Shown here in pieces: positions 24,178-42,181 of a stretch of DNA of 64,000 nucleotides. The position numbers and the translations under genes are program-made. Source of the stretch: an uncultured Alphaproteobacteria bacterium (GTDB taxonomy: Bacteria > Pseudomonadota > Alphaproteobacteria > RF32 > CAG-239); the NCBI GenBank assembly GCA_934254585.1, contig CAKQLF010000003.1, positions 39,371-103,370 on the forward strand. Reading direction: 5' to 3'. Below the pieces are notes generated by a model that was not told where the DNA came from, made no database searches, and saw nothing but the letters and a program-made list of their open reading frames with translations. The first letter of the stretch is position 1, and every line of letters starts with the position of its first letter.

Positions 24178-24284
24178 TTTGCTATTCCTTTATGTTAAGG
24201 GTTAAAAATTATTTTTGGTTATTATCATAAAGGATAGGGTACCACAGCAGACAATAATTTAAATCCGCCAGCTCGAAAAATGAT

Positions 24285-24806: not shown

Positions 24807-25113
24807 ATTAACGTGCCTTTATCATTTTTTTATATATCTATATTTAGATGTTAAAATAATAAAATGCAATGTGATATTGTAACACAAAAAACAATTTGCA
24901 GATGTAAAAACCTAACTTTATACTTAGTATTTTATGGTGGTGGAGGGGATACCAAAAAACTAAGTCGTATATTTATTACACCGAAATAATGAAAATTTAA
25001 ACCGTTGGTATCTTTAATTGTCCAGACCATCTACGACATCTGGTCACTTTCTACCCCCGTATCGCAACCATAGTTCCATTACAAAAATAAGAATTGCTAG
25101 CCTAACCAAATTA

Positions 25114-25196
25114 AGAAAAATGTGTATATTAGAATCACAAATATTTAGAATTTTGTGTATATTTTATATGAATAATTCTTGAATTTTGTGTATTTA
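25114..25196 (+). promoter_or_regulatory. Three direct repeats (consensus AGAAWWTGTGTATATT) phased at exactly 33 bp
   Basis: Copies start at 25114, 25147 and 25180, 50-135 nt upstream of the ATPase ATG at 25249. Confidence 0.6.
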
Positions 25197-25248
25197 TATG
25201 CTATTTATACCTTATAAAATGTGTGTAATCTATTTTAAGGACAAGTCA

Positions 25249-26598
25249 ATGTATCGTAAAGCTGAGCAAATATTGAAAGTATGGAAGGCTAACTTAAAAA
25301 AGAAAGCCTTGCTTATAACCGGTCAACGACAAGCCGGTAAGACTTATATTGTGCGTGAGTTCGGTAAAGCTAATTATAAACACTATGTAGAAATTAACTT
25401 CATTACGACACCCTCTGCTAAAGATATCTTCTCAGGAGATTTAAATGCCGACACTTTGATTATGAATTTAACCGCCTTTATAGGTAAGCCGTTAGAAAAA
25501 GGAAAAACTCTGATATTTCTTGATGAAATACAAGAATGTCCGAATGCTCGAACAGCAATTAAGTTTTTGGTTGATGATGGGCGATTTGATTATATTGAAT
25601 CAGGCTCACTTTTGGGTGTTCAATATAAACAAGTTCCGTCTTATCCTGTAGGTTATGAAGAGATATATCAGATGTATCCGATGGATTTTGAAGAATTTTG
25701 TATTGCAAATGGTGTTCAAACCTCAACGCTTGATTATCTGCGCGAATGTTATGAAAAACAGACGCCGATAACTGATTCCATTCATCAAACAATGTCTAAT
25801 CTATTTAAGTATTACATTGTTGTCGGTGGTATGCCTGATGTGGTCAAAAGATTTATAAACACACGTGATATAGGACAAGTTGTGGGTGTCCAACGAGATA
25901 TTATTGCCCAATATCGGCAAGATATAAACAAATATTCTATCACCGGCAAAAATATGATTAACCATATATTTGATAATATACCATCACAACTGGATGATAA
26001 AAATCGCCGATTTATGCTCTCTTCAATTCAAAAGAATGCCAGACTTCGCGATTATGAAGATTCTTTTGTTTGGCTATCCGATGCCGGAGTTGCTCTGCCG
26101 TGTTATAATTTGACAGAGCCCAAAATACCTCTTAAAATCAACGAACAAAGCCGTTTATTCAAACTCTATATGAGTGATGTCGGCTTACTCTGTGCGATGA
26201 GCTTGGAAAATGTTCAATTTGAGATATTACAAGGGAATTTATCCATAAATATGGGGGGAATCTTAGAAAATGCCTTTGCTGAACTCTTAAAAGCTAACGG
26301 TTTTGCTCTGCGTTACTTAAATAAAAAGAACATCGGTGAGTTGGATTTTGTGGTTCAGCAAAGTGATGAAGTTGTACCGATTGAAATTAAATCAGGTAAA
26401 GATTATAAGGCACATGCCGCACTCAATAATGCTTTAAAAGTTAAGGAATGGAACCTCAAAAAAGGTATTGTATTTTGTATGGATAATATCCAAAAAACTG
26501 ATAAAATAACTTATCTTCCGTGGTATTTGGTGATGTTTTTAAAACAAAATAATTCTGACGAATCAATGATTATAAATGTTGATTTGAGTGGATTATGA
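25249..26598 (+). CDS. AAA_14-type ATPase with a DUF4143-like C-terminal nuclease-fold domain
   Basis: Walker A GQRQAGKTY, Walker B IFLDEIQECP, C-terminal ELDFVV...VPIEIKSG. AAGGA RBS before ATG 25249; the track ORF opens earlier at 25186. Confidence 0.75.
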   Translation: MYRKAEQILKVWKANLKKKALLITGQRQAGKTYIVREFGKANYKHYVEINFITTPSAKDIFSGDLNADTLIMNLTAFIGKPLEKGKTLIFLDEIQECPNARTAIKFLVDDGRFDYIESGSLLGVQYKQVPSYPVGYEEIYQMYPMDFEEFCIANGVQTSTLDYLRECYEKQTPITDSIHQTMSNLFKYYIVVGGMPDVVKRFINTRDIGQVVGVQRDIIAQYRQDINKYSITGKNMINHIFDNIPSQLDDKNRRFMLSSIQKNARLRDYEDSFVWLSDAGVALPCYNLTEPKIPLKINEQSRLFKLYMSDVGLLCAMSLENVQFEILQGNLSINMGGILENAFAELLKANGFALRYLNKKNIGELDFVVQQSDEVVPIEIKSGKDYKAHAALNNALKVKEWNLKKGIVFCMDNIQKTDKITYLPWYLVMFLKQNNSDESMIINVDLSGL

Positions 26599-27045
26599 TA
26601 GTAAATAGTCTGCCGAAATTTGCGAACTTCACGAAAAAAATAGAGAAAATTAATGATACACAAAAAACAAAACGTGTGCTTAATTTTACACTGTGATGCG
26701 AACACCCTAAAAATGCCCATAAAGCCTTATAATTAAAATAAATCTTGTTTTGGTAAAAATAAATCTTTTTCTACTTTAAGTAATAAAAATAAAATTTATA
26801 TTTTGAAAATTTTACAACTATTTGAAGTTACAAGATATCATATGGCGAAGTGCCGCAATCGCTGTTTGAAGAAATCAAGCCGTACTACGACAAACTTTCG
26901 TATTTGGTAGAAAAATTTGAAGTAAAATTTTGCAAAGGAATTGTTAAGTTGGTAGGTATAAAATCATAATATAATAATATAATTGCTTTTTAGTTTGTTA
27001 TTTGATAGCTTTTACATCATCAAATATATTGAGGAAGGAAAACTC

Positions 27046-28803
27046 ATGAATATTTTTTCTTTTTGCATCGGTGCGGCTGTGGTTTGTTTGTATTTTAAAT
27101 GGAAAAAGCAGGCAAATCCAAATAATTCGGATAATAAAATTAAATTGTCTGAAATTAGTAACGACCAGGCATTGAATAAAGTTATTCATCTGATAGATAG
27201 TGGTAGAAATATTTTTATAACAGGCGGTGCAGGGACAGGTAAGAGCTATATGCTTCGTCAGTTAAAATTACATTATAAAACATCTCTAAATTTAACAAGC
27301 ACGACAGGAATATCTGCTATTAATATAAACGGGCAAACAATACATGCTTGGTCTGGTATCGGTATAGATAATAATCCTAACTCATTATGGAATGTACTAA
27401 ATCGAATTATTTCCAATCCAGTGTTAAAAAAACAAATCCTCGATTGTAAAATGTTGGCAATAGATGAAATATCAATGTTACATAAAGATACATTGGAATT
27501 CTTAAATTTAGTTTTGCAAAAAATACGTTGTAACGAGCAACCTATGGGAGGAATACAAACTATTTTTATAGGCGATTTTTTCCAATTACCACCTGTAGTA
27601 AAAGATCGAAAGATTAGTATTGATGATTTTTGTTTCAGTTCTGAAACATGGAAGAAATTGAATTTAGAAACAATTTTATTAAAAGAAGTCAAAAGACAAA
27701 ATGAAATTAGGTATATTAATGTATTAAATCACATAAGAGAAGGTATCGTGGATGAAAAAGACTGGGAGGTTATATTAGATAGATATAATAAAATGCCTCT
27801 TGATATTATTAGTGATAAGACAAAATTACATTTATATTCTACAAACAAGGAAGCAGATGGCTTCAATAATATGTGCTTTGAGCTTATAAAATCGGAGTCT
27901 ATTACATTTGAAAGCGAAGACAAAATAGAATATTATAATGAAAAACAACAGTTAATTTGCATAGAAACCAATCCTGATAAATGGGGAGACTTCGGTAATG
28001 TTTTCAATGAAGATTTTAGAGTACCCCGAGACTTAAAACTAAAAATAGGCTGTAGAGTTATGCTTTTAAAAAACATAGATGTCAAATCAAAGTTAGCCAA
28101 TGGTAGTTGCGGTACGGTAACAGATATTGCAAATGACGTCATTGTAATCAAATTTGATAAAGGTCCGTCTGCTCCTGTTGCAAAAGCAGAATTTGAAAGT
28201 TTTAGATATCGAAAAAAATCATTTGGTGTGGATAAAGGAGATAGTTTCAAACAGCGTATTGTACGCAAACAGTTTCCTGTACGTTTAGCATATGGTATTA
28301 CTATTCACAAATCGCAAGGAATGACATTTGATGAATTGGTTGTGCATTTAGATAAAATATTTGCGGATGGTCAATGTTATGTAGCTTTAAGCCGTACAAC
28401 ATCACTAGAAGGCTTAAACCCAATTGGATTTAATCCTAATAAAATAGTCGTAAATAAAGATGTCGTTAATTTTTATAAAAAATTAGATGATGCATCGATT
28501 ATAAATAATTCAAACAATTTGAATGCAGAAGATAATGAAAGGGAAAAACTTATAAAACAAGCAATAGAAGAAGGTAAAATATTAAAAATAAAATATCATT
28601 CCAATTCACAATACAAAAATGAAGAAACCGTGAGAACTGTTAAGCCTAAAAGACTTGCATACGGAAGAGATTTGAATAATGAAGAAAATGAAAGTTCATA
28701 TCATTTAGAAAATAATAAATTATATATGATAGCATTTTGTGAATTAAGACAACAAACCCGACATTTTAGGGTTGAAAATATTGAAGATATAGAGGTTTTA
28801 TAA
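27046..28803 (+). CDS. Pif1/RecD-like SF1 helicase with an N-terminal hydrophobic segment and a C-terminal WYL domain
   Basis: GGAGTGKSY, AIDEISML, GDFFQLPPV, ITIHKSQGMTFD, YVALSRTTSLEGL. C-terminal LKIKYHS...VRTVKPKRLAY...LYMIAFCELRQQTRHFRVENIEDIEVL is WYL-like. GAGGAAGGA RBS before ATG 27046. Confidence 0.8.
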   Translation: MNIFSFCIGAAVVCLYFKWKKQANPNNSDNKIKLSEISNDQALNKVIHLIDSGRNIFITGGAGTGKSYMLRQLKLHYKTSLNLTSTTGISAININGQTIHAWSGIGIDNNPNSLWNVLNRIISNPVLKKQILDCKMLAIDEISMLHKDTLEFLNLVLQKIRCNEQPMGGIQTIFIGDFFQLPPVVKDRKISIDDFCFSSETWKKLNLETILLKEVKRQNEIRYINVLNHIREGIVDEKDWEVILDRYNKMPLDIISDKTKLHLYSTNKEADGFNNMCFELIKSESITFESEDKIEYYNEKQQLICIETNPDKWGDFGNVFNEDFRVPRDLKLKIGCRVMLLKNIDVKSKLANGSCGTVTDIANDVIVIKFDKGPSAPVAKAEFESFRYRKKSFGVDKGDSFKQRIVRKQFPVRLAYGITIHKSQGMTFDELVVHLDKIFADGQCYVALSRTTSLEGLNPIGFNPNKIVVNKDVVNFYKKLDDASIINNSNNLNAEDNEREKLIKQAIEEGKILKIKYHSNSQYKNEETVRTVKPKRLAYGRDLNNEENESSYHLENNKLYMIAFCELRQQTRHFRVENIEDIEVL

Positions 28804-29517
28804 GATTAATAGAATATTTACTTTATGCATCTTATGGATATCACATAACGTCTTGAATTAATAGATTTCAATAATTTTAAAAATTGTATGATAAACATCA
28901 TATTGTATTTGATATTGTTCTGTTTCCAAGCATTGGTTATATTGTACCGAAAGGAAATACAATGAAGACTGTTAAAATCTATATGGTTAGGAAGCCGTCA
29001 GATATTGAAGAAATAATGGAGTATTCCTGCGTTATAGCAACCAGACAGAGAAAGTTGTAATGAAGGAAACGGTCAACCTACCACAAGTCTGGTATGATGC
29101 TGTGTTACGAAATCCGATGGACAATTACATCTTTTTATCTGGTAAAGGTGGTTATAACGTTGAAAACCACCGCCAAGTGCTTGAATTCCAATGCGCCGAC
29201 AAATCACCCCTTTACGTCGCCCCGTCCGGCTCCTCATACTGCTGTTACATGTGAGTTGAATTATAAAAATGCGCAAATATGAGTATATCCAGCCGAGCAA
29301 CTGCACAACTTTCCGGATGTTATATATAATGCTGGCAGAACCTTGACGCAAATTGAAATGATATTAAAACGGACATACGGGAATCCGCTACCGATAAAGT
29401 CGCAGGACCATTTATTCCGTATAAGGCACAAGCTGGAACAAATGGTCGCCCGCTACAAACAATGCGAGAGTGAACTAAAGAACGAACGTCAAAAGAAAAA
29501 ATGACATTTTGTTTAAT

Positions 29518-30432
29518 TTATTGTGATAAAGGGGAATGTCGGGTAAATTTAATTTCACCTAAAATATCTTCACTCTGATGATGTTCTAAACCCATAATAC
29601 AAATTCTCTCATTATCTACGATACTTTTATCAAATAAATTGTAGTGTTTTTCCGGAATCTTGTCTACATCATCAAAATCCATTGAAGCTATGGCACCAGA
29701 AATATAATCAGGAACCCGAATTAATTCATCAAAAATCTCTTTATTGTATTCTTTACCGCCCCAAAATCCATAAATTTCATTATCATAAATTCTTTTGTTA
29801 AGTAAATTTGAATATCCTAGGCGCACAAGTTCATTTACAATACCATCTTGAAAATCCGTTATTTTATCTCTATCCGGCACCCACATAATATGCTTGGCTT
29901 TTGCTTTTATTAAGAGAAATTCTAATATTGCAGACATAATATGTGCCGTAATAGTGACATTAGACAGCGTTTTCAAATCAATTTCTTTCCGATTGAGATA
30001 ATTTCTCATCTTTTTCATTTTGTGGATAAATTCTTCTTTTTTAGCTGGAGGCCAATTTTCCATATATTTAATTGTTTTATCTAAGACTTGTTTACTATCT
30101 TCCAACGCAAACACATTATTTTTATTTTTAATTATAAATGCCACTGAGAAAAAATAAGGAGCCTCCTTAATATAGTTAATAGCTTTTTCCGAAAGATTCT
30201 TAAAATCCTTAATATCTTTGGATAAATGCCTTTTTATTTCATAATTTAACATCTGAGGCGGAACAAAAGGAAAAATTGTAAAGGTCATGACATCATTAGT
30301 TTTATCTTTATCATCAAGACAGTAATCACTGGTAATGTACCAAGAATCTACACGCTTAAAATTCTGTTGAAACTTTTTCCATTTTTCAACAAAATCAGGA
30401 AAATGGCTGGATAGGATTGTTTTTCTATTCAT
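29518..30432 (-). CDS. Hypothetical protein (304 aa), last gene of the R-M operon; weak DUF3800-like pattern
   Basis: WYITSDYCLDD...MTFTIFP, WVPDRDKI and IRVPDYISGAIAS loosely resemble the N-terminal and C-terminal acidic motifs of DUF3800. This is recollection only. Confidence 0.6.
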   Translation of the reverse strand: MNRKTILSSHFPDFVEKWKKFQQNFKRVDSWYITSDYCLDDKDKTNDVMTFTIFPFVPPQMLNYEIKRHLSKDIKDFKNLSEKAINYIKEAPYFFSVAFIIKNKNNVFALEDSKQVLDKTIKYMENWPPAKKEEFIHKMKKMRNYLNRKEIDLKTLSNVTITAHIMSAILEFLLIKAKAKHIMWVPDRDKITDFQDGIVNELVRLGYSNLLNKRIYDNEIYGFWGGKEYNKEIFDELIRVPDYISGAIASMDFDDVDKIPEKHYNLFDKSIVDNERICIMGLEHHQSEDILGEIKFTRHSPLSQ

Positions 30433-30495
30433 GTCTTCACCATAGTACGTTTGTCATATTATATACTTAGGTTTTATTTCTAAAAATAACAAGAT

Positions 30496-30954
30496 TTATA
30501 GCTTCAAATATTCTAAAAACGCTTGACAGCCTTCGTAAATATCCCAGTAGCTCTCATCAAAATTGCCAGTATACCACGGGTCGCGGATATTGCGCGGATT
30601 ATTCGTAAAATCAAGAAGACGATGGATTTTGTGTCCCGTATCTGGACCTATAAGTGATTGAATGTCCTCAATATTACTGTTATCCATTGCTAAAATATAA
30701 TCATAATACACATAATCTCGCGGGCGAATGCGGCGTGAATAATGTTCTTCAAACGGCACATGCATTGACTTTAATATCTCGCGTGTGCCATAATGAATGC
30801 CGGCGTGGCACATCTCATTATAGCTTTCGGTTGCGGCAGAATTAATTTCAAACTGCTCGGACAAACCTCGTTCCTCAATCATTTGCTTAAACACAAACTG
30901 CGCCATCGGCGACCGGCAAATATTCCCCAAACATACAAACAAAACTTTAATCAT
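30496..30954 (-). CDS. Low-molecular-weight protein-tyrosine phosphatase / ArsC-fold phosphatase
   Basis: VLFVCLGNICRSPMA (CX5R-S P-loop) and DPWYTGNF (general-acid Asp). Internal ATG 30954..30952 shares one base with the hsdR TGA (TGATG). Confidence 0.85.
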   Translation of the reverse strand: MIKVLFVCLGNICRSPMAQFVFKQMIEERGLSEQFEINSAATESYNEMCHAGIHYGTREILKSMHVPFEEHYSRRIRPRDYVYYDYILAMDNSNIEDIQSLIGPDTGHKIHRLLDFTNNPRNIRDPWYTGNFDESYWDIYEGCQAFLEYLKL

Positions 30955-33900
30955 CACGCTTCCATAATATTGTCTGTCCAAAGCTCGCATTGTGTCATAA
31001 CAGTTTGTACGGCGTCTTCAACACCTTCCGGTGGATATTTGTGCTTTTTAAGTAATCTTTTTATGAGCATACGCATTTTGGCCCGAGCCGTTTCTTTTTT
31101 CTGCCAATCTATCGTTTTATTTTTACGCAAAGTTTCGGTAAGTTCTTTTGTTATAGCAATTAATTCATCATTTTCATAAAAATCCTTAACAGCTTGCGGA
31201 CGCGTCAAGGCATCATAAAAAGCCGCTTCTTCGACATTAAGACCTAAATCTTCGCCTTCTTTTTGTGCCGAGGCGATTTGTTTTGCCAGATTAAGCAGCT
31301 CTTCGATAACTTGCTCATTAGTCAACATACCGTTCAAATAGCGGTTCATAGACTCTTGTATCATTTCGCTGAACTTTTCCGAACGCACAACATTAGTATG
31401 GCGATAAATAGAAATCTGCTCAGCTATCAGCTTTTTCAGCAATTCTACGGCTAAGTTTTTTTCTTTCATCTTGGATATTTCTTCCAAAAACTTTGGATCA
31501 AATAGCGAAAATTCTTCTTTTATATCCGAAAACAGGTTGATAACACCATCGCTCTTTATGCTCTGTTCCAACAGTTCGTTAATGCGCTTATTCATTTCCG
31601 GCAATGATATTTTTTTACCGCCTCCGCTTTCGGTTAAACGCAAAATCATAATTCTGACTGCCTCTAAAAACGCCGCCTCAATACGCAAATTTTCTTCAAC
31701 AATGGATGCGCAAAGCGATAGTGCCTGATGTAACATAAGAGCTTGCTTAATAAAGGCATCTTTTTCTTTATTTTTCTCTCTAGCAATGATAAAGTTTGTG
31801 GCACCGCTTATCAATCTTGCTCTGACTAAATTTGAACCAGTAGCAAATTCGCTATAATCAAAACCATGCAATAAATCGCGGCAGACCTGCAATTTTTCCC
31901 TGAATTTATTATATGCTGTGCTGGCAATGTCCATATTGCCGTAGTTCTTTCTATCGCGGATAGTATAATCATTCATTGCCTTTTTCAAAGCGCTGGCAAT
32001 ACCGATATAATCAACCACCAAACCGCCTTCTTTATCTTCAAACACGCGATTAACCCGCGCAATCGCTTGCATCAGGTTATGCCCTTCCATCGGCTTATAA
32101 ACATACATTGTCGCCAATGACGGCACATCAAAACCGGTTAGCCACATATCAACGACAATGGCAATTTTCAGCGGATCGTTATTATCCTTAAATTTGCGCG
32201 CCAATTCTTCTTTATGCGATTTATTGCCGATAATTTTCCGCCAGTCTTCGGGGTCATTATTACTTGAGGTCATAACCACGGCAATTTTATCTTGCCAGTT
32301 TGGACGCAATTCCAAAAGACGATGATAAATTTTCAGGGCAATCGGACGAGAATAGGCCACAATCATAGCCTTACCGGTCAACAAATTTTCGCGATAGTTT
32401 TCGTAGTGGTCCAAAATATCGCAGACAAGCGAATTGATAGTGTCATCATCGCTCAAAATAGTTTCCATTTGTCCGAGCTGTTTTTTGCTCTTTTCAATGA
32501 CTTCCGGCTCGGCATTTTGCGCCATTAAATCATATTCAGCATCAATAAGTTGCAAAATTTCCGGCTTTAGATGAAGTTTTATGACGCGGCTTTCATAATA
32601 AACCGGACGCGTTGCGCCGTCTTCCACCGCTTGTGTCATATCGTAAACATCGATATAGTCGCCAAATACCTCTCGCGTGTTGCGGTCATCAAGAGAAAGC
32701 GGAGTTCCGGTAAAACCGATATATGTCGCGTTTGGCAGAGAATTGCGAATAATTCGCGCCGTACCGACTCTAATATTTCCGTCTTTATCTATCTTTTCAG
32801 ACAAGCCATATTGGCCGCGGTGTGCCTCGTCAGCCATCACGATAATATTCCGGCGTTCTGACAACGGCTCCGCTGATTCCTCAAACTTTTGCATCGTGGT
32901 AAAGAAAATTCCATTAGCTTTGATACCCTCTAAAAGCTGTTTCAAATGAGCACGGCTTGTTGCGTGCACCGATTCTTGGCGCAAAAAATCTTTGCATTTA
33001 GCAAATTGCGTATAAAGTTGGTCATCCAAATCGTTACGGTCGGTAATAACAACTATTGTCGGGCTGTTTAATGCACTTTGCAATAAATGAGCATAAAACA
33101 CCATAGAAAGCGATTTTCCGCTGCCCTGCGTATGCCAGAACACACCGCCTTTACCGTCTGTTTGCGTGGCGTGCTTGGTAGATTCAATAGCTTTTTTAAC
33201 CGCAAAATATTGATGATAACCGGATAGAATTTTGACGGCACCTTTGTTTCCGTTAGAAAAGCAAATAAAATTTTTCAATATATCCAACAGACGCGATTTT
33301 TCAAAAATCCCATTAAAAAATGTGTCAAACTGCGCATATTTGGTGTTTTCGTACGAACCGTCAACCGTTTTCCACTCCATAAAACGTGTTTCATCAGAAG
33401 TAATCGTTCCGGCTTTAGATACCGCCAAATCACTCATCACGCAAATTGCGTTATATATAAACATAGACGGAATTTCGTGTTTATAATTTTGAATTTGCCG
33501 ATATGCTTCTGAAGCATCTGTTTCTTCGCGGGACGGGGATTTTAATTCCATCAGCACGAGCGGCAAACCGTTGATAAACAGCAGAACATCCGGACGTTTC
33601 TCGCTGTTTTCAATAAAAGTCCATTGGTTGGCGATGATAAAGGAGTTATTATCTGGATTTTCATAATCAATCAAATAAACAATCGTATCGCGCGGCTCGC
33701 CTTTTTCGGTATAGCGGACGGTGATGCCGTTTTGCAAATAATCCATAAAAACAGCGTTTTTCTGCGTTAATTCGGCATTTTCAAAGTTTTTGAGCTTAAA
33801 CAGAGCCTCGTTTATCGCCTCATCCGGCAAATTAGGATTGATTTGGTGGAGAGAATTTGTCAGCACAGCCTCATACAACGGCGAAGTAAAATCCCTAGTT

Positions 33901-34001
33901 TCCACATCCGGCCCATAAATATGCGTATATCCCATGCCCTCAAACAACTCTATAATAGAGTTTTCATACGCTTCTTCATTTACCGGATTTGTGTAGGTCA
34001 T
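30954..34001 (-). CDS. hsdR: Type I restriction enzyme, R subunit
   Basis: 1015 aa. N-terminal nuclease region, QGSGKSL Walker A, MADEAHRGQ DEAH box, helicase C-terminal motifs (QAIARVNR). Confidence 0.95.
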   Translation of the reverse strand: MTYTNPVNEEAYENSIIELFEGMGYTHIYGPDVETRDFTSPLYEAVLTNSLHQINPNLPDEAINEALFKLKNFENAELTQKNAVFMDYLQNGITVRYTEKGEPRDTIVYLIDYENPDNNSFIIANQWTFIENSEKRPDVLLFINGLPLVLMELKSPSREETDASEAYRQIQNYKHEIPSMFIYNAICVMSDLAVSKAGTITSDETRFMEWKTVDGSYENTKYAQFDTFFNGIFEKSRLLDILKNFICFSNGNKGAVKILSGYHQYFAVKKAIESTKHATQTDGKGGVFWHTQGSGKSLSMVFYAHLLQSALNSPTIVVITDRNDLDDQLYTQFAKCKDFLRQESVHATSRAHLKQLLEGIKANGIFFTTMQKFEESAEPLSERRNIIVMADEAHRGQYGLSEKIDKDGNIRVGTARIIRNSLPNATYIGFTGTPLSLDDRNTREVFGDYIDVYDMTQAVEDGATRPVYYESRVIKLHLKPEILQLIDAEYDLMAQNAEPEVIEKSKKQLGQMETILSDDDTINSLVCDILDHYENYRENLLTGKAMIVAYSRPIALKIYHRLLELRPNWQDKIAVVMTSSNNDPEDWRKIIGNKSHKEELARKFKDNNDPLKIAIVVDMWLTGFDVPSLATMYVYKPMEGHNLMQAIARVNRVFEDKEGGLVVDYIGIASALKKAMNDYTIRDRKNYGNMDIASTAYNKFREKLQVCRDLLHGFDYSEFATGSNLVRARLISGATNFIIAREKNKEKDAFIKQALMLHQALSLCASIVEENLRIEAAFLEAVRIMILRLTESGGGKKISLPEMNKRINELLEQSIKSDGVINLFSDIKEEFSLFDPKFLEEISKMKEKNLAVELLKKLIAEQISIYRHTNVVRSEKFSEMIQESMNRYLNGMLTNEQVIEELLNLAKQIASAQKEGEDLGLNVEEAAFYDALTRPQAVKDFYENDELIAITKELTETLRKNKTIDWQKKETARAKMRMLIKRLLKKHKYPPEGVEDAVQTVMTQCELWTDNIMEA

Positions 34002-34025
34002 GAGTTATGCTCCTTTAAACTATTT

Positions 34026-34352
34026 TTAATCTTCGTTGATGTACTCAGGATAAAAAGGAATTGAAAACTTTATACGGGAAATATGTTCATTATTATACCC
34101 TCGTTCTCCGTTAATATTTGCACCAAGAACACTAATTCCAATTTTACTTTCTCCTTTAGCTGTTCCGCCTTCTGAGCTTGTAACAGCAATATCAAAATCT
34201 ATGGCATGACTATTATAATCTAAACTAGATACTTTATAAGCTGCAATAACATGGCATTTATTATTTGGGTGTAAGTTATATTTTTGTTTTAATTTTTGCG
34301 TAGCATCTACTATATCAGAAACAGATTGTTCAATAAATTCTTTCAATTCCAT
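34026..34352 (-). CDS. Small protein (108 aa) resembling the trypco2 (trypsin-co-occurring domain 2) family
   Basis: N-terminal helix MELKEFIEQSVSDIVDA, then a beta-rich segment IDFDIAVTSSEGGTAKGESKIGISVLGANINGERGYNNEHISRIKFSIP. The pattern matches what I recall of trypco2. The ATG overlaps the upstream TAA (TAATG). Confidence 0.6.
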   Translation of the reverse strand: MELKEFIEQSVSDIVDATQKLKQKYNLHPNNKCHVIAAYKVSSLDYNSHAIDFDIAVTSSEGGTAKGESKIGISVLGANINGERGYNNEHISRIKFSIPFYPEYINED

Positions 34353-35191
34353 TATTTTTTCTCCTTTAAGCCTTTAAGAAATTCTGACATATTATCTTTA
34401 CGTTCTTTATTATCTTTTATCAAAACGCAGAATAAAAGCAACTGATAAAGTTCATCATACCAATTTTCCAATTCCAAATCAGTCAAATTTAAAACTAATT
34501 CTTTTTTATTTTTACCATCTCTATTATTATGGCGAATATCTAGATTATTAAGCATATTATTAGCCGTTTTAAAATAGTCTGTAAACCCTTCTATAGGTTT
34601 ATCTAAAGTCGGCTCATATTCTTGTGCAATACGTCGTAAAATATCTTTTTTCTCGGCTAATTTACCTTCTAAAGATGCATGATGATACATTAAAATTGCC
34701 ATTGCCGTATCTTCTGAAGATATTTCAGCAACAGCAGTTGCTGCAGGATTTTTAGGAATAAGGATAACTTTTTCATCTTCCTCAAAAACATGTTTTTCAT
34801 AATTAAGATGTTCAAGCAGAATATTTATATTTTGTTCAAACATTAAAAACTCACGAGTTTTTGTAAAATGAGGCGAGAATAATTTTGTATTTACTAAGTT
34901 AACCATATTACAAATATATTCTAATTTGCAAATTTTTCCTTCATCCGCAAGAGCCTTTAAACCTGTAAGGTCTAATTTTTTCATCATATCCTCTGCTGTA
35001 AGACAAGCACCTCTTTGCTTCCATTCATAAAAACAAGTATTATTTACTGCATTCACAATAGTAGTTTGATTACCATTAACGTAATAACGATTATCTATAA
35101 GTAATGGAGAATTAAATAATTGTTCTATAACTACAAATTCAGAAAATGTATTATATTTACTTTCTAAAATCTCAAAAATATTCTTTCGCAT
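34352..35191 (-). CDS. Hypothetical protein (279 aa) between hsdS and hsdR
   Basis: Clean ORF starting 11 nt after hsdS, with its stop overlapping the next start. No family recognised. Notable strings: ILMYHHASLEGKL and NNLDIRHNNRDG. Confidence 0.65.
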   Translation of the reverse strand: MRKNIFEILESKYNTFSEFVVIEQLFNSPLLIDNRYYVNGNQTTIVNAVNNTCFYEWKQRGACLTAEDMMKKLDLTGLKALADEGKICKLEYICNMVNLVNTKLFSPHFTKTREFLMFEQNINILLEHLNYEKHVFEEDEKVILIPKNPAATAVAEISSEDTAMAILMYHHASLEGKLAEKKDILRRIAQEYEPTLDKPIEGFTDYFKTANNMLNNLDIRHNNRDGKNKKELVLNLTDLELENWYDELYQLLLFCVLIKDNKERKDNMSEFLKGLKEKK

Positions 35192-35202
35192 TTATTTTTC
35201 CC

Positions 35203-36348
35203 TTATAATAACATATCTGCAGCATTAAATTTGTTTATGTCAACTTTTGATACATCAATTTCGCCACTCATAAGTTTCGGCAACAAGGCATCCCGAAGTG
35301 CCACCAGCCGAGTATTTTCTTGTTGGTTATGCCCAATTAACATATATAATGGTGTCGCATCTTCATTATATTTTTTTACTAGTCCAAGATTTATTTCTTT
35401 TATTGGCATATTTTCTATATGTTGAGGGTATATATGAGGTTGGGCAGAACCTGTTTGGGCTTCAAAAATTTCTTGTTGCCTCATTTTCAGAGTAACGTAC
35501 CAAAAGTATACATATGGTGTAATCGTAGCATCTATAAATGATGAATCAGATGACCAAACAGGTATATGCCATAAATTAACATAACCAGCATTTGCTCCAG
35601 AGGCTGAAATGGTTATTACTGGGGTGATTGTATTTGCTTGATTATGATAAGTTGCCGGAGATAAACCTCCAGCCACAACAGGTACGATTCCCTTTACAGC
35701 ATCTTTAGATAATAAGTTTTTTCCTCTTTTAGGTGATAAATATTCTCCAATGCTTTTATTACCCAATTTTATATCCGGAAAATATTGCTTAAACAAAGCC
35801 TGAGCCTGTTGTTCTAAATTATTATTTATCTTACTATTCAGCTCGATTTTATCATCCAGCACACCCAACACCACCGCAATCTTTTTCTGAATATCCATCG
35901 GCGGCAACAAGATTTTCATAGGTGCTAATTCAGAAGAAAATGTTATCTGAGGAAATGTGCCGGAACGAGTTTCAGCTAAATGTTGTAACTCACTGATGAT
36001 ATTTTTAGATTTTAAGATATTAAATAAAAACTTAGATAATATCTTTTCTTTATTAGGGCGCAGAACCATTAATTTTGTGGATGCAATATAGTTAGATGTA
36101 TCATCAAAATCTACGTAAGCAAATCTTTTGTTTGCAGGCCTTATTTCAGAGTACAAAATATCATCTTTTTTGAAAGTTTTTTTGAATTGTCCTTTTAATT
36201 TTTCATTTTTTACAAGTTCATGATTCAAAATTTTTCCTTCTAAAACATCAGAGGTATTAACCAATACAACATGCTCATCCTTGTTGTGATATGTCTCAGA
36301 AATAGATGAGCAAACATCCCCCAATCTAACTTCTTGCCATTTAGTCAT
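35203..36348 (-). CDS. hsdS: Type I restriction enzyme, S (specificity) subunit
   Basis: 381 aa. Two target-recognition halves separated by a conserved helix (KIAVVLGVLDDKIELNSKINNNLEQQAQALFKQYF) and ended by a C-terminal helix (LVALRDALLPKLMSGEI). Confidence 0.9.
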   Translation of the reverse strand: MTKWQEVRLGDVCSSISETYHNKDEHVVLVNTSDVLEGKILNHELVKNEKLKGQFKKTFKKDDILYSEIRPANKRFAYVDFDDTSNYIASTKLMVLRPNKEKILSKFLFNILKSKNIISELQHLAETRSGTFPQITFSSELAPMKILLPPMDIQKKIAVVLGVLDDKIELNSKINNNLEQQAQALFKQYFPDIKLGNKSIGEYLSPKRGKNLLSKDAVKGIVPVVAGGLSPATYHNQANTITPVITISASGANAGYVNLWHIPVWSSDSSFIDATITPYVYFWYVTLKMRQQEIFEAQTGSAQPHIYPQHIENMPIKEINLGLVKKYNEDATPLYMLIGHNQQENTRLVALRDALLPKLMSGEIDVSKVDINKFNAADMLL

Positions 36349-36367
36349 TAAACTTCCTTTATAATAA

Positions 36368-37429
36368 TTATTTTCTATCTTTTGAGGTTAACCTATTGTT
36401 TATCATATCTATCAATAATAAAGTTTTTTCATTTTGAGGTAAAGCCTCAATTTGTTTTATCCATATTTCTTTATCGGCAAGAGTAATATAATGTTTATTT
36501 ACTCTACACATATAATCTCTTAATGCATTTATCGCATTATCTATATCACCCAACATTATACATAATTCTGCTAAATTATAATAATTTACATATATTTTTT
36601 CATCTAAACTGATTGATTCTAAAATACATTTTTTAGCATTTTGATAATCTTTTATACCAATATATGCACATCCTAGATTAGCCAACACACCAGCATCTCT
36701 TTTTATTTTTAAGCATTCTTCTAAATCGTTAATGGCCTTTTTATACTCTTCTTTCTTTAAATATACTTCTGCACGTAAAGATAAATTTTGTATTGTCTTC
36801 ATAATTTCAATAGATGAACTTATAGTGCCTATTGCCTTATCATAATTCTTACTAGATATATCATGTGCTATGTTTATAGATATACCTGAAAGCATTGAAT
36901 TAGCTTTAACCTCTTTTGCAAGATTTTCAACTTCTTGAAGTTGCTTTCTCATTTCATCCACATTAACTGAAGTCTGTTCTTTCTGAGTTTTGCATTCTGC
37001 TATAATCTTATCAATTTCTCTTTTTTTATCTTCAAAAAACTTTACAAAACAAATAGGAACTATAATTGCAAAGATACCAACCATAATAGCCAACATAGAG
37101 AGCCAAAAATTTAGATAGTAACTTTGATGTTCAAAATACTTTTCCAAAAATTGTTTATATTCATATTTCTGCATATCATCAATGGGCTTAACTACATTAT
37201 TAGTAGCTATATGATACGATTGATTAGTTGCATCATTAACAATCGTCAATGTTTCAATAAAATTTTTATTTGCAATAATACTTTCTTCAACTAATGTCCT
37301 AATACTTAAATATTGCCATATAGTAAGAGCCACCATTGTAGTACAAAGAATTCCATATGTAATAACTGCATATTTTAATATAGGATAGACTTTTATATTT
37401 CTTAAAACTAATTTTAAATTTTTCATCAT
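36368..37429 (-). CDS. Two-TM membrane protein with a cytoplasmic coiled coil and TPR repeats
   Basis: 353 aa. Hydrophobic segments at about residues 15-45 and 97-125, then a charged helical stretch, then TPR-like repeats (YKKAINDLEECLKI..., YQNAKKCILESISL..., IDNAINALRDYM). Confidence 0.65.
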   Translation of the reverse strand: MMKNLKLVLRNIKVYPILKYAVITYGILCTTMVALTIWQYLSIRTLVEESIIANKNFIETLTIVNDATNQSYHIATNNVVKPIDDMQKYEYKQFLEKYFEHQSYYLNFWLSMLAIMVGIFAIIVPICFVKFFEDKKREIDKIIAECKTQKEQTSVNVDEMRKQLQEVENLAKEVKANSMLSGISINIAHDISSKNYDKAIGTISSSIEIMKTIQNLSLRAEVYLKKEEYKKAINDLEECLKIKRDAGVLANLGCAYIGIKDYQNAKKCILESISLDEKIYVNYYNLAELCIMLGDIDNAINALRDYMCRVNKHYITLADKEIWIKQIEALPQNEKTLLLIDMINNRLTSKDRK

Positions 37430-37528
37430 TTTTCGACCTTGTTTTTCCTATGCTTGTTTACTTACAAATCTTCATTTACCCTAATATTATCACATTACAA
37501 ATTGGAAATGTATATATTTTTTTAATTT

Positions 37529-38494
37529 CTACCCATTATTCAGCACGCTTAAAATTACTTGTTTCATCGTTTCTTTTTCTTCCGGCTTGCTTTCGGCAAT
37601 TAAGATCGTAAGAGTAAATAATGTTGTATTATCAATAAGTTGAATATTGTTTTGATAGAGAATTCCGTTTTTATCCAGAAAATACAAAAAACAGGCCGCG
37701 CCAATCCGCTTATTACCATCTGTAAAGCTATGGTTTTTAACTAGAAAATAGAGCAACATTGCCGCTTTTTCTTCTAACGAAGGATAACATTCTTGCCCTC
37801 CGAATGTCTGATAAATTTGGTTAATAGAGCTGTCAAAACTATCATCTTTGGGGTTTGCGAATACGTCAGAACCAAACTCCGGTTTCATTTTATCAATAAC
37901 GTTCAAAAATTCTTCTTTTTTAATAATCACCGCCGGTTTTGTTGTCTTACCTTTAGTATCAAGAGTTTTGTTATCATAATCATCCAGCAAATCCAGACCG
38001 GAAGCAAAATCAGCCATTAAGGCACTTAACTTTTTAGCATCATCTAGATTATCTACCTGATGCTCAATACTTCGGTTTAAGAGCTTAATCGCATTTTGTA
38101 ACTGTGAAATTTTGGATTTTTGCTCTTGTAACCGTTTTTCATTAACAGCATATCCGTCTACAAGATATTGCTTTAATATCCCTGTCGCCCATTTGCGGAA
38201 TCTACTTGCTTCTATTGAGTTTGCTCTGTATCCAACAGCCAAAACTATATCTAAGTTATAGAACTCAACAGGTTTATCTGAATTTGGAATGTGCATTTTT
38301 TGCACATTGCTTTTTTCCTCAATTTCCCCAGATTTAAAAATATTATTGATGTGCCTTGATACACCGGATCTGTCTATATTAAATAATTTAGCAATTTCTT
38401 GTTTATTAAGCCAAATAGTATCTGCTTGATAGTCTATCTGAACATCTATATCGCCATACGATGTATCATATATTTTTAAAGCATTAGTTCCCAT
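37529..38494 (-). CDS. RhuM-like N-terminal domain fused to a Fic/Doc (death-on-curing) domain
   Basis: WLNKQEIAKLFNIDRSGVSRHINNIFKSGE is RhuM-like. HSFTDGNKRIGAACFLYFL is the Doc-type Fic motif. The ATG directly abuts the hsdM stop codon. Confidence 0.8.
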   Translation of the reverse strand: MGTNALKIYDTSYGDIDVQIDYQADTIWLNKQEIAKLFNIDRSGVSRHINNIFKSGEIEEKSNVQKMHIPNSDKPVEFYNLDIVLAVGYRANSIEASRFRKWATGILKQYLVDGYAVNEKRLQEQKSKISQLQNAIKLLNRSIEHQVDNLDDAKKLSALMADFASGLDLLDDYDNKTLDTKGKTTKPAVIIKKEEFLNVIDKMKPEFGSDVFANPKDDSFDSSINQIYQTFGGQECYPSLEEKAAMLLYFLVKNHSFTDGNKRIGAACFLYFLDKNGILYQNNIQLIDNTTLFTLTILIAESKPEEKETMKQVILSVLNNG

Positions 38495-40006
38495 TTACTT
38501 TATCTCCCAGCCGATTGCTTTCAGCTTTTCGCGGATTTCCGACTGCAAAGCGTCGGACTGCTTGAACATATCCGCAAGCTCGCCTGTCAGGCGTTTCATC
38601 TTGTCTTCAAACGGTTCGCCGTCATCTTGCTGTTCTTCAATACCGACATAGCGTCCCGGCGTTAAAATATAATCCTGCGCCGCAATTTCCGCTGTCGTGG
38701 CAACGGCGCAAAAGCCTTTGATATTCTCTAATGTGCCGTTTTGAAATGCCGTAAACATATCGGCAATCTTTTTAATATCGGCATCAGTAAAATCGCGGTG
38801 CTTGCGGTCAACCATATAGCCCATTTTACGCGCATCAATAAATACAGTGCGTCCTTTTTGTGGCTTATTTTTGCTGATAAACCACAGCGTTACCGGAATT
38901 GTAACGCTATAAAACAGTTGCGGCGGCAAAGCGATAATACCCTCTATCAAATCGGCTTCAATAATGTTTTTGCGGATTTCACCTTCGCCGCTGGTTTGGG
39001 TGGAAAGCGCGCCGTTTGCCAACACCAAACCGATTTTACCATTCGGTGCGAGATGGTGTATCATGTGTTGAATCCACGCATAGTTTGCATTTCCGGCAGG
39101 CGGAATGCCATACTTCCAACGCACATCATCTTGTAACTTATCTTGTCCCCAATTAGAAAGGTTAAACGGTGGATTAGCCATAATAAAATCAAACTTTTCA
39201 TGCGGGTGCTGGTCATTAAAAAATGTATCCGCCTGATATGGCCCGAAATCAGCATCAATGCCGCGAATTGCCATATTCATTTTTGCCATTTTCCAGGTAT
39301 CAGCGTTGGATTCTTGCCCATAAACCGATATGTGGTCGCGATTTCCGCCATGTGCCTGTAAAAATTTAACCGATTGAACGAACATTCCGCCGGAACCACA
39401 GCAAGGGTCATAAACGCGGCAGTTGTCAAACGGTTTCAAAACTTCCACAATGGTCTTAACAATGCTTGATGGCGTATAAAATTCACCGCCTTTGGTGCCT
39501 TCGTATGCGGCAAACTGGGCAATACAGTATTCGTATGTGCGCCCGAGCAAGTCTTTATCTTCGTCGGTCTCAGACATATCAATATTGTTGGTAAAGAGGT
39601 CAACAACATTGCCTAAAACACGTTTATCTAGGTCTTGGTTGGCATAATTCTTAGGCAGAACATTCTTAAGCGATTTATTTTCAGCTTCAATGGCTCGCAT
39701 GGCATCATCAATAATAATGCCGATTTCAGGAGTATGTGCCGCTTCAGCAATTTTACTCCAACGAGCGGCTTCCGGAACATAAAATATACCTTCCATTGTG
39801 TAGGCATCTTTTTCATCTTCAAAGCCATCGCCCTCTGCAACTAGCTGATTATAGCGTTTTTCAAAGGCCGCAGAAATATAACGCAAAAAAATAAGCCCGA
39901 CAATTACTTTTCGGTAATCTGCCGCCGGAATATGTCCCCACAGCTCACATGCCGCATTCCAAATTTGCTTTTCAAAACCAATATTGGCGTTATTTTTTTC
40001 TGCCAT
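38495..40006 (-). CDS. hsdM: Type I restriction enzyme, M (N6-adenine methyltransferase) subunit
   Basis: HsdM N-terminal domain (FEKQIWNAACELWG), SAM motif DPCCGSGGMF, catalytic IMANPPFN. Confidence 0.95.
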   Translation of the reverse strand: MAEKNNANIGFEKQIWNAACELWGHIPAADYRKVIVGLIFLRYISAAFEKRYNQLVAEGDGFEDEKDAYTMEGIFYVPEAARWSKIAEAAHTPEIGIIIDDAMRAIEAENKSLKNVLPKNYANQDLDKRVLGNVVDLFTNNIDMSETDEDKDLLGRTYEYCIAQFAAYEGTKGGEFYTPSSIVKTIVEVLKPFDNCRVYDPCCGSGGMFVQSVKFLQAHGGNRDHISVYGQESNADTWKMAKMNMAIRGIDADFGPYQADTFFNDQHPHEKFDFIMANPPFNLSNWGQDKLQDDVRWKYGIPPAGNANYAWIQHMIHHLAPNGKIGLVLANGALSTQTSGEGEIRKNIIEADLIEGIIALPPQLFYSVTIPVTLWFISKNKPQKGRTVFIDARKMGYMVDRKHRDFTDADIKKIADMFTAFQNGTLENIKGFCAVATTAEIAAQDYILTPGRYVGIEEQQDDGEPFEDKMKRLTGELADMFKQSDALQSEIREKLKAIGWEIK

Positions 40007-40488: not shown

Positions 40489-40565
40489 TGGTGGGCACTG
40501 CAAGACTCGAACTTGCGACCAGACCGTTATGAGCGGCCGGCTCTAACCAACTGAGCTAAGTGCCC
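40489..40565 (-). tRNA. tRNA-Met (anticodon CAT); tRNA-Ile2 (lysidine) not excluded
   Basis: Hand-folded 77-nt cloverleaf: GGGCACT/AGTGCCC acceptor, GCTC/GAGC D stem, GGCCG-CTCATAA-CGGTC anticodon arm, GCAAG-TTCGAGT-CTTGC T arm, encoded CCA. G1-C72 pairing argues against an initiator tRNA. Confidence 0.9.
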
Positions 40566-41128: not shown

Positions 41129-41755
41129 TTATTTGCCAGTGAAAAAAAAGTCACATAGATTATCGGAAGCTGAACAATCACAAGCTAAAGCCGCTTTATC
41201 CGGAGATATGGGAATTTGATTATCCTTGGCGCAAGCATAGGCAGAGCCTTTTCCAAAAGCAGATCCGTGAAGACAATCAGTAAGACTCAACTCCATATTT
41301 GTTAGAAGATTATTAATATTATCCTGTGTCTGTATACCAACTGCGCCAAAATAATTTTGCCAGGCCTGTGTTGCCAACTCAATACAGGCATCTTCAGGAA
41401 TATGTCTTATTGCTATTGAATAAGCTCTCATTTCACCATCCATATCATCAATATCAAAATGCGTACCATCATACCAAGCAGCGGTAATTATAACTTCTCC
41501 ATTAAAAGCATTTTTTATTTCACCATTTTCATCATACATTTCCGCCGGAATAATTCCAGAAGCTTTCAAATCAATATCACTTAAACTCGCGTAATTTTTT
41601 TGATTAGCGTATAATGTTTTTATGTTATTGGCTATTGTTATAACTTCATCAATAACTTTATTGGTTTTGAACTTGGTCATTGCTTTGGAATAACCGGCAA
41701 TACCACCAACGCTTAAAACACCGATGATGGCCAGAACTCCCAACATTTCAATCAT
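41129..41755 (-). CDS. Type IV pilin-like protein (paralog A)
   Basis: Contains G-RSMIEMLGVLAIIGVLSVGGIAGYSKAM, a class III signal-type N-terminus with Glu at +5 after the Gly. Cys-rich C-terminus. The start is unresolved: no ATG/GTG/TTG lies just upstream of the Gly. The first in-frame ATG is the Met of SMIEML, at 41755. The frame stays open up to 42172. Confidence 0.7.
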   Translation of the reverse strand: MIEMLGVLAIIGVLSVGGIAGYSKAMTKFKTNKVIDEVITIANNIKTLYANQKNYASLSDIDLKASGIIPAEMYDENGEIKNAFNGEVIITAAWYDGTHFDIDDMDGEMRAYSIAIRHIPEDACIELATQAWQNYFGAVGIQTQDNINNLLTNMELSLTDCLHGSAFGKGSAYACAKDNQIPISPDKAALACDCSASDNLCDFFFTGK

Positions 41756-41863
41756 CGAACGACCATAATCTCTCGCCCCGTGCTGGAGAGAGTGGCACGA
41801 CAGTGCCGAGTGAGGGGTATTTATTAAATTGCAAACAGCTCTTAACCATCGTCCCAATCTATT

Positions 41864-42028
41864 GTCATTGCCGGACGAGATCCGGCAATCTAGATTCGCG
41901 GGTCTGTGCCCGCGAATGACACTAAAGAAGTGCCCGTTAATGACGCAGAAAAGGTGTTTTAAAACCTTGCAACAAATACTAAGCCAACACCTCCAGCTAC
42001 CGTCATTCTCAGGCTTGTCCTGAGAATC
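41864..42028 (-). repeat. Cassette of three perfect 9-bp-stem hairpins with shared ATT...AAT ends and GTCATT/AATGAC flanks
   Basis: Plus strand: ATTGCCGGA-cgaga-TCCGGCAAT (41867..41889), ATTCGCGGG-tctgtg-CCCGCGAAT (41894..41917), ATTCTCAGG-cttgt-CCTGAGAAT (42005..42027). A half-site GCCCGTTAATGAC lies near 41931..41944. Confidence 0.85.
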
Positions 42029-42124
42029 TTGTGCGAACCGACACTTATGTAATAATAAGGCAAATTTATTGACTAGGTTAGTACCTTGTTGCAACAAGAT
42101 TCTAGGCACAGGGTCTAGAATGAC
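42019..42124 (-). repeat. Conserved leader block 1 (copy A), repeated at 56346..56451
   Basis: 106 nt with 3 mismatches between copies (hand alignment). Contains the 14-bp palindrome CTTGTTGCAACAAG. Confidence 0.9.
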
Positions 42125-42181
42125 CATAGAGCGGTGTAAACGAGTACTTTTTTCAATGCTAAAATTTTTCAAAAAATCAAT

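Follow-up and report, generated by a model that had tools for sequence, protein, structure and literature searches.

What do two small, overlapping genes do between hsdS and hsdR of a Type I restriction-modification (R-M) operon? The question is raised by contig CAKQLF010000003.1 of an uncultured Alphaproteobacteria bacterium (assembly GCA_934254585.1), of which 64,000 nucleotides, hereafter the window, were analysed. Here, an open reading frame (ORF) encoding 279 amino acids (ORF279) is followed by one encoding 108 (ORF108). A first reading of the sequence, the original prediction, took the two for a dedicated effector/adaptor module. We lean towards another answer, with somewhat more confidence than doubt: the hsdS-hsdR interval would be a cargo slot, and ORF279 and ORF108 two separate passengers, both defence candidates, rather than an obligate pair. 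The two genes are co-expressed with the operon and independently exchangeable, each being replaced independently of the other by recombination in conserved flanks.

All genes of the operon lie on the minus strand, in the order hsdM, RhuM+Fic, TPR, hsdS, ORF279, ORF108, hsdR and a 164-aa ORF (Table 1). The position between hsdS and hsdR and the TAATG overlap are as originally described, and the coupling is real: according to the ORF calls, the TAA stop of ORF279 (34354..34352) and the ATG start of ORF108 (34352..34350) have one base in common, and an AAGGAG inside ORF279 (34366..34361) lies 8 nt 5' of this ATG. The spacers to the flanking genes measure 11 nt (hsdS-ORF279) and 24 nt (ORF108-hsdR), and no convincing minus-strand terminator was seen between hsdS and hsdR in a promoter/terminator scan, which is otherwise uninformative in such AT-rich DNA. 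The exact ORF279 and the exact ORF108 sequences are each recorded on 39 contigs. For ORF279, a word-indexed search retrieved 540 homologues and an exhaustive search at least 1140 clusters at 50% identity. For ORF108, 41 close homologues were retrieved, and a search with the profile of its family (A1) found 1395 proteins. Because of these homologue counts, both are considered real conserved genes and not chance ORFs.

The history of the two genes is recorded in the differences between related operons. Pairwise identities of the 279-aa and the small proteins are uncorrelated (r=-0.03), and co-evolution of ORF279 and ORF108 was rejected on this ground. Compared with the window, locus L094 has a 279 protein of 95% identity and a small protein of 48%, while L004 has a 279 protein of 60% and a small protein of 99%. 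In a DNA sliding-window comparison, the cassettes are bounded by the 3' end of ORF279 and by the 5' end of hsdR, and the N-terminal half of ORF279 is seen to be exchanged separately: in L004 this half has about 45% DNA identity to the window, the operon otherwise being 91-100% identical from about residue 120 onward. Two operons are even 97-100% identical on either side of the small gene and differ in that allele only.

The small gene also occurs without its neighbour, and the neighbour without the small gene. The ORF108 subfamily (Trypco2L, named after the relationship discussed below) is present at 13 distinct loci, the window included, and 12 of these are in the hsdS-hsdR slot. In L199, the order is hsdS, Trypco2L, hsdR, with the FSIPFYPEYI tail of the small protein intact and a 279 gene nowhere in the locus. 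In L200, on a mobile element that carries no hsd genes, Trypco2L is coupled with an unrelated membrane protein of 319 aa. Conversely, most loci of the 279 family are without the small gene. Neither the constant co-occurrence nor the co-variation of an obligate two-gene module was thus found. The two genes of L200 (3045-4351) overlap by 4 nt, an integrase and a resolvase are encoded on the same element, and the 319-aa protein has a coiled-coil N-terminal part and hydrophobic, probably transmembrane (TM), segments; here the same effector may belong to another kind of two-gene arrangement.

The surroundings of the ORF279 family (ORF279L) were surveyed in one genome per species, giving 80 loci, with local hidden Markov model annotation and Pfam spot-checks. 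At 33 of them the order is hsdS, 279 gene, cargo if any, hsdR (Alphaproteobacteria, Gastranaerophilales/Melainabacteria and Elusimicrobia), and in 18 of these 33 the 279 gene abuts or overlaps hsdR, with no gene between. Other Type I gene orders account for five loci, Type III clusters of the form SNF2-DUF4391-279-Mod-x-Res for eight (Clostridia and relatives), and two loci adjoin MmeI-type enzymes. Altogether, ORF279L is found within R-M operons of three types at 48 of the 80 loci, in Alphaproteobacteria, Melainabacteria, Elusimicrobia and Clostridia. A further 30 or so are solitary or elsewhere, near WYL/WCX, HNH, a CAAX-protease-like gene or housekeeping genes, and the single archaeal locus (Methanimicrococcus) has no recognisable R-M context. 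ORF279L is therefore an embedded candidate, nested in a known multi-gene defence system and recurring in unrelated hosts. The Clostridia clusters of L067, L065, L063 and L077 read SNF2 helicase, DUF4391, ORF279-like gene, Type III Mod, small ORF and Type III Res, and their ORF279-like gene has stop/start overlaps on both sides.

A metagenome scan for close relatives of the window's HsdR (75-83% identical) gave 66 informative loci, 65 of which are without a 279 gene and hold other cargo between hsdS and hsdR. ORF279 is for this reason regarded as cargo itself and not as a core subunit of this HsdR lineage, a role that was rejected. Its GC content (0.28) agrees with cargo status: the embedded genes of the operon range from 0.26 to 0.34, versus 0.41-0.44 for hsdM and hsdR. 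The human-gut contigs L118-L196, which belong to these relatives, have a wide variety of unannotated genes between hsdS and hsdR (about 210-450 aa); alongside are opposite-strand copies of parts of hsdS and a gene that encodes about 329 aa. The opposite-strand copies look like phase-variable hsdS shufflons.

What else fills the slot is in line with a place for defence cargo. Elsewhere it holds SoFic (E=3.5e-111), PD-Lambda-5, AbiLi and an AlbA_2/Schlafen protein, as well as two unannotated families with a conserved RNxxxH motif. The latter are found in or beside the slot at L006:8904-9695 and L117:2142-3140 (263/332 aa) and at L049:6852-7520 (222 aa), and read IRNCITH/VRNCIEH in the longer and LRNSIIH in the shorter family. 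The RNxxxH motif, on which alone this assignment is made, suggests HEPN-type RNases; neither family matches Pfam or PADLOC.

ORF279 itself resembles no protein family in the databases searched. Pfam, NCBIfam, PADLOC and PHROGs contain nothing that matches it, and neither do the annotated plasmids and phages searched with tblastn. Among PDB sequences, its profile retrieved coiled-coil noise only, and IMG/VR yielded no relative. The AlphaFold2 (AF2) model (mean predicted local distance difference test score, pLDDT, 82.6) is of mixed alpha/beta structure in its N-terminal half and helical in its C-terminal half. With Foldseek, its best hits have an E value of 0.56 (PDB) and 0.67 (BFVD), nothing falling below 0.5. 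As supposed originally, the protein thus belongs to no known abortive infection (Abi) or HEPN family. The N-terminal region and the C-terminal domain evolve at very different rates: in alignment A2, mean pairwise identity is 34% for residues 27-117 versus 68-71% for residues 118-279. Across 83 superfamily members, Y169, G176, K181 and E193 are conserved in 100%. R220, H221, N222, N223, E242, Y245, D246 and Y249 reach at least 91%, and W244 and Q250 85-87%; many of these fall in the motifs LNNLxIRHNN (215-223) and LExWYDExYQ (241-250). W57, R60, E91, N95, A155, E156 and H171 are also conserved.

Known activities were sought in this pattern. A protease was rejected, as there is no HExxH and no superfamily-wide Ser/His/Asp or Cys/His pattern. 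HEPN and known Abi proteins were rejected since R220 and H221 are adjacent, with no His 4-6 residues downstream (no Rx4-6H), in addition to the empty Pfam, PADLOC, PHROGs and fold searches. A nuclease was rejected for want of a signature. In addition, H221 is lost in certain paralogues. These rare paralogues (P0333, P0350 and P0381; 875-941 aa) have the whole ORF279-like domain as the cytoplasmic N-terminus of LytR_cpsA_psr (LCP) enzymes, with a long charged linker and a TM helix preceding the extracellular LytR_cpsA_psr domain, and H221 is changed to N, T or E. In P0363 (399 aa), a C-terminal TM anchor takes the place of the LCP part, and the His of RHNN is replaced as well.

For ORF108, the predicted likeness to trypco2 was supported at profile level by several routes, and the peptide IDFDIAVTSSEGG...RIKFSIP on which it was based is present in the translation. 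Against the Pfam model PF19631 (Trypco2; 78 positions), ORF108 scores 16.7 bits (E=0.0089), residues 1-96 aligning with profile positions 1-74 over nearly the full domain. When scanned singly, 30 of 38 close homologues match the same model below threshold (best E=3.7e-4), and no other Pfam model recurs in more than four of the 38. The A1 profile detects P0217 at E=6e-16, a protein above the Pfam gathering threshold (25.9 bits), and P0239 at 1.8e-15, named 'trypco2 family protein' by NCBI. An hhalign comparison of A1 with an alignment of more distant Trypco2-like proteins (A3) gives 99.95%. From the ORF108 side, tblastn finds a 'trypco2 family protein', so named by the Prokaryotic Genome Annotation Pipeline (PGAP), on a Sulfitobacter plasmid (E=3e-3). 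No PDB sequence was matched by a profile of the ORF108 family.

The AF2 monomer has a helix at residues 3-25 and strands at 50-61 and 88-99, residues 63-88 being of low confidence. The helix has a hydrophobic moment of 0.44, a value reached by 0.9% of shuffles, and A1 and A3 both have a conserved MELK(D/E)FI start. The beta-periodicity moments are 0.36-0.72, with F53, A56, F96 and P99 invariant. No TM segment was found in the sequence. In the tail, P99 and P102 are invariant, and E103 and I105 are conserved in at least 90%. In agreement with the original description, no protease or NTPase (nucleoside triphosphatase) gene adjoins ORF108, and no protease domain is present in ORF279 or in any neighbour at the 13 Trypco2L loci. 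The more remote Trypco2-like genes are solitary and lie in prophages and mobile elements; none has a linked protease, except for a weak Peptidase_C1 match in L095, which lies about 2.5 kb off on the opposite strand. Sequence comparison thus places ORF108 in a branch of the Trypco2 ('Pepco') family that has diverged and lacks a protease; the branch is treated as peripheral because of the missing linked protease and the short conserved tail that starts with Pro.

Two of the distant relatives stand in very different neighbourhoods. In Porphyromonas phage BK068089.1 (L198; record 811-1215), a Trypco2-like gene lies directly 3' of a phage repressor gene in the same orientation. On the Sulfitobacter plasmid NZ_CP081131.1 (L197; record 163341-163637), the PGAP-named gene is located within a sugar ABC-transporter operon and adjoins DUF2160. 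The Trypco2-like fold therefore has defence-like and non-defence contexts.

According to Kaur et al. (2020, PMC7159879), what defines Trypco1 and Trypco2 is their partnership with trypsin-like peptidases in NTPase conflict systems. As reported by Evans et al. (2025, bioRxiv 10.1101/2025.11.14.688446), Pepco is a pre-assembled 9-10-mer beta-barrel that becomes a membrane pore once the linked protease removes the C-terminal tail after a conserved Ile. It serves as the protease-activated pore effector of Avs and VMAP-type systems (PMC7159879; 10.1101/2025.11.14.688446). Its barrels resist SDS, and the trypsin- or caspase-like protease encoded beside it usually belongs to a fusion with STAND, vWA-MoxR or another sensor. 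ORF108 resembles these proteins in size (about 105-120 aa), in the N-terminal amphipathic helix, the amphipathic beta segments and the conserved Ile close to where the last strand ends, in spanning nearly the full Pfam profile and in its transitive profile link to accepted or PGAP-named members. It differs in that neither a trypsin- or caspase-like protease nor a STAND or MoxR-vWA NTPase is encoded next to it, its branch being found in the hsdS-hsdR slot or in lysogeny modules of prophages and mobile elements. The tails differ too. In SsPepco the tail is about 20 residues long, charged, Pro-rich and disordered, and is cut after Ile97-Arg98, whereas that of ORF108 is 10 residues long, highly conserved and starts with Pro. 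In ORF108, the conserved Ile98 directly precedes the invariant Pro99 with which this tail begins.

By homology to SsPepco, ORF108 would oligomerise via its amphipathic beta segments to a beta-barrel, with the N-terminal amphipathic helices at the base. Once triggered, it would permeabilise the inner membrane as an abortive-infection back-up to restriction; the protein is, in other words, probably a membrane pore. The trigger would be independent of a protease of the linked type; candidates are a host or phage protease that cuts at another place, altered expression, and a partner that binds the protein. A canonical trypsin or caspase cut is not expected, because there is no dedicated protease and an invariant Pro follows Ile98. 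ORF279, judged by its anatomy and distribution, would be a self-contained defence candidate, in which residues 27-117 might form a fast-diversifying recognition region and the conserved C-terminal domain, with the RHNN and WYDExYQ motifs, might execute or transmit the response. Its position before hsdR or mod would then reflect co-expression with R-M and not a role as structural subunit.

Some observations weigh against two independent defence passengers. At 11 of the 13 Trypco2L loci, ORF279L lies immediately upstream; the pair thus recurs, as the original prediction requires, at ten distinct loci beside the window. The stop/start overlap is present in seven of these 11 (window, L004/5, L016, L046, L090, L094 and L201). 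In related hsd loci without ORF279L, Trypco2L was found in 0/65, and Fisher's test gives p=5e-5 on earlier counts of 9/37 versus 0/65, a figure confounded by host taxon. Effector-like genes are tightly coupled 3' of other ORF279L genes as well, namely those of the two RNxxxH families, a 2-TM SieB-like protein and a TM-HNH protein, an arrangement to be expected if a sensor works with exchangeable effectors. As for the small protein, pore formation rests on remote homology, the Pfam score of ORF108 stays under the gathering threshold of 24.2 bits, and the pLDDT of its AF2 monomer is only 60, too poor for a fold search, for which the model was not used. Lastly, the PGAP-named trypco2 gene in the sugar ABC-transporter operon implies that the fold is not limited to defence.

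Part of this speaks for the dedicated two-gene module, in which ORF279 would act as a sensor or adaptor that gates ORF108 in place of a protease or NTPase, guarding the Type I enzyme like PrrC. The stop/start overlap and internal Shine-Dalgarno would suit such a unit, as would the order, which is invariably 279 then small gene at the 11 loci and across several 279 clades. The variable N-terminal region of ORF279 is typical of immune sensors, the other coupled 3' genes are effector-like (222- and 263-aa HEPN-motif, 2-TM SieB-like and TM-HNH proteins), and the conserved ends of ORF108, MELKDFIEQSVSDI and SRIKFSIPFYPEYI, could form a common docking surface that survives allele swaps. Yet ORF279L is mostly partnerless: it runs straight into hsdR at 18 of the 33 hsd loci and into mod in the Type III clusters, and is solitary in about 30 cases. 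In L199 and L200, Trypco2L of the same subfamily does without it, and the two proteins do not co-vary. Furthermore, the homologue of the 263-aa HEPN-motif protein in L117 is encoded upstream and not downstream of ORF279L, the autonomous SoFic, PD-Lambda-5 and AbiLi occupy the same slot, and ORF279 has no protease signature that could replace the missing enzyme. The module is therefore held to be unlikely, and this claim of the original prediction is weakened; two testable defence candidates remain. A facultative functional link between ORF279L and Trypco2L is about equally doubtful, and is kept alive because of the residual association of the two.

Another possibility, which we regard as rather unlikely, is that ORF279L is an immune sensor of a new type, with a hypervariable N-terminal region and a conserved RHNN/WYDExYQ domain, that works beside S-adenosylmethionine (SAM)-dependent R-M enzymes (Type I, III and IIL), for instance sensing anti-restriction and licensing whichever effector is plugged in. 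The licensed effectors would be the Trypco2-like pore and the RNxxxH, 2-TM or TM-HNH proteins. If true, this would reveal protease-independent firing of Pepco-type pores.

Quite unlikely, in our view, is a role of ORF279 as R-M accessory, either a guard that senses inhibition of SAM-dependent helicase-type enzymes (I, III, IIL) or a factor in the regulation or assembly of HsdR/Res, with ORF108 as unrelated cargo. PrrC and PARIS provide precedents for R-M guards (PMC12707154). Such a role would explain why 48 of the 80 loci have ORF279L in R-M operons of three types, usually abutting or overlapping the next R-M gene (ATGA-type overlaps with hsdR; overlaps of 4-17 nt with DUF4391 or mod). It fits poorly with the roughly 30 of 80 loci beside no recognisable R-M gene, some among housekeeping genes, with the 65 of 66 close HsdR relatives that work without ORF279, with a GC content that marks cargo, and with the fusion of the same domain to LCP cell-envelope enzymes. 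That neither gene serves defence, both being selfish or neutral passengers in a recombination hot spot (e.g., an addiction module or a small membrane/transport-associated protein), may be suggested by the sugar ABC-transporter operon with DUF2160, the housekeeping neighbourhoods of some ORF279L genes and the LytR_cpsA_psr fusions, but is very improbable given that known defence genes make up the great majority of what else occupies the slot, the distribution is patchy across phyla with rapid allele turnover, relatives lie in prophages beside a repressor gene and the characterised Pepco is a defence effector.

Defence genes embedded in R-M operons are already established through guilt-by-embedding (Payne et al. 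2024, 10.1101/2024.01.29.577857), and TgvAB is nested in a Type I R-M operon of V. cholerae (PMC11411939). Our locus shares with these the nested genes and the variable cargo, SoFic, PD-Lambda-5, AbiLi and RhuM-Fic/PDC-S23 being found at equivalent positions; it differs from TgvAB in that ORF279 and ORF108 are no obligate two-gene unit. Neither protein matches any of the 5027 PADLOC v2.0.0 models, the PDC and HEC candidates included. The pair does occupy the position of prrC in the prr locus, as was pointed out originally, and resembles PrrC/RloC in this, in its co-expression with the restriction enzyme and as a candidate back-up when restriction fails. The likeness is one of position, though: Pfam, NCBIfam and PADLOC searches show no ABC-ATPase or anticodon-nuclease domain in either ORF, and ORF279L further occurs on its own as well as in Type III and Type IIL operons. 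With Avs, AbiJ and HEPN-type proteins, ORF279L shares a hypervariable N-terminal region before a conserved C-terminal domain, horizontal spread across phyla and defence neighbourhoods, but it has no NTPase, HEPN (Rx4-6H) or nuclease signature and no significant fold match.

Pepco/Trypco2 pores have so far been understood solely as substrates of linked proteases. A protease-less branch in the hsdS-hsdR slot and beside prophage repressors would thus point to a different trigger and extend the biology of these effectors. The 279-aa family is large, extends over several phyla of gut bacteria and is linked with three R-M types, which makes it a testable candidate for a new defence gene or R-M accessory. 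The locus as a whole provides a clean natural case of cassette turnover inside a restriction operon.

Table 1. Features of the hsd operon and its two slot genes (window positions).
Feature	Position	Strand	Basis or remark
ORF279	34352..35191	-	ORF call and translation; member of a large uncharacterised R-M-embedded family (ORF279L)
ORF279 residues 27-117, variable N-terminal region	34841..35113	-	alignment A2
ORF279 residues 118-279, conserved C-terminal domain (motifs YxH..LKG, LNNLxIRHNN, LExWYDExYQ)	34355..34840	-	83-member conservation
R220-H221-N222-N223 codons (CGC CAT AAT AAT)	34523..34534	-	sequence; homologue conservation
Shine-Dalgarno AAGGAG for ORF108, within ORF279 3' end	34361..34366	-	sequence
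TAATG stop/start overlap ORF279/ORF108	34350..34354	-	sequence
ORF108	34026..34352	-	divergent, protease-less Trypco2/Pepco-like small protein
ORF108 residues 2-25, N-terminal amphipathic helix	34278..34349	-	AF2 helix; hydrophobic moment
ORF108 residues 49-99, amphipathic beta segments (IDFDIAVT, KIGISVLGA, SRIKFSIP)	34056..34208	-	AF2 and periodicity
ORF108 residues 99-108, short conserved tail PFYPEYINED after I98	34029..34058	-	homologue alignment
hsdM, first operon gene	38495..40006	-	homologues with HsdM_N/N6_Mtase
RhuM+Fic/DOC gene, 321 aa, embedded (PADLOC PDC-S23)	37529..38494	-	Pfam Virulence_RhuM 2.5e-19, Fic 7.6e-12
TPR protein, 353 aa, embedded	36368..37429	-	TPR_2, TPR_8, TPR_1 matches
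hsdS, upstream of slot	35203..36348	-	homologues in related loci with Methylase_S; local phmmer
hsdR, downstream of slot	30954..34001	-	homologues with HSDR_N/ResIII/T1RH-like_C; 593 relatives in metagenomes
164-aa ORF, last in operon	30496..30990	-	homologues 3' of hsdR in L004/5 and L094 with LMWPc (low-molecular-weight phosphatase)

The remaining genes of the operon also include embedded ones. The RhuM+Fic/DOC protein matches the PADLOC candidate PDC-S23 at E=3.4e-118; its gene begins directly past the hsdM stop and follows hsdM in L004, L006-8, L044, L046 and L094 as well. The TPR gene (GC 0.26) fills a second variable slot, between RhuM-Fic and hsdS. In the hsdM-hsdS slot of related operons (L006-L008 among them), it is replaced by an AAA_15/AAA_21 ATPase or by unknown genes. 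At the other end, the 164-aa ORF and the 3' end of hsdR overlap by 37 nt. With phmmer, the 164-aa protein finds further homologues 3' of hsdR in L018 and L021; going by these homologues, this would be an unexplained conserved hsdR-phosphatase linkage.

Beyond the operon, a tRNA-Met gene is located at 40489..40565 (minus strand), just 5' of hsdM, and the region of about 24000..38000 has a GC content of 0.28-0.36 versus about 0.40 in the flanks. Together, they would suit the insertion of a genomic island at the tRNA. In a 347-aa ORF further upstream (41129..42172, minus strand), the internal SMIEMLGVLAIIGVLSVGGIAGY resembles what we take to be a prepilin-type N-terminal segment, and the true start is probably located there.

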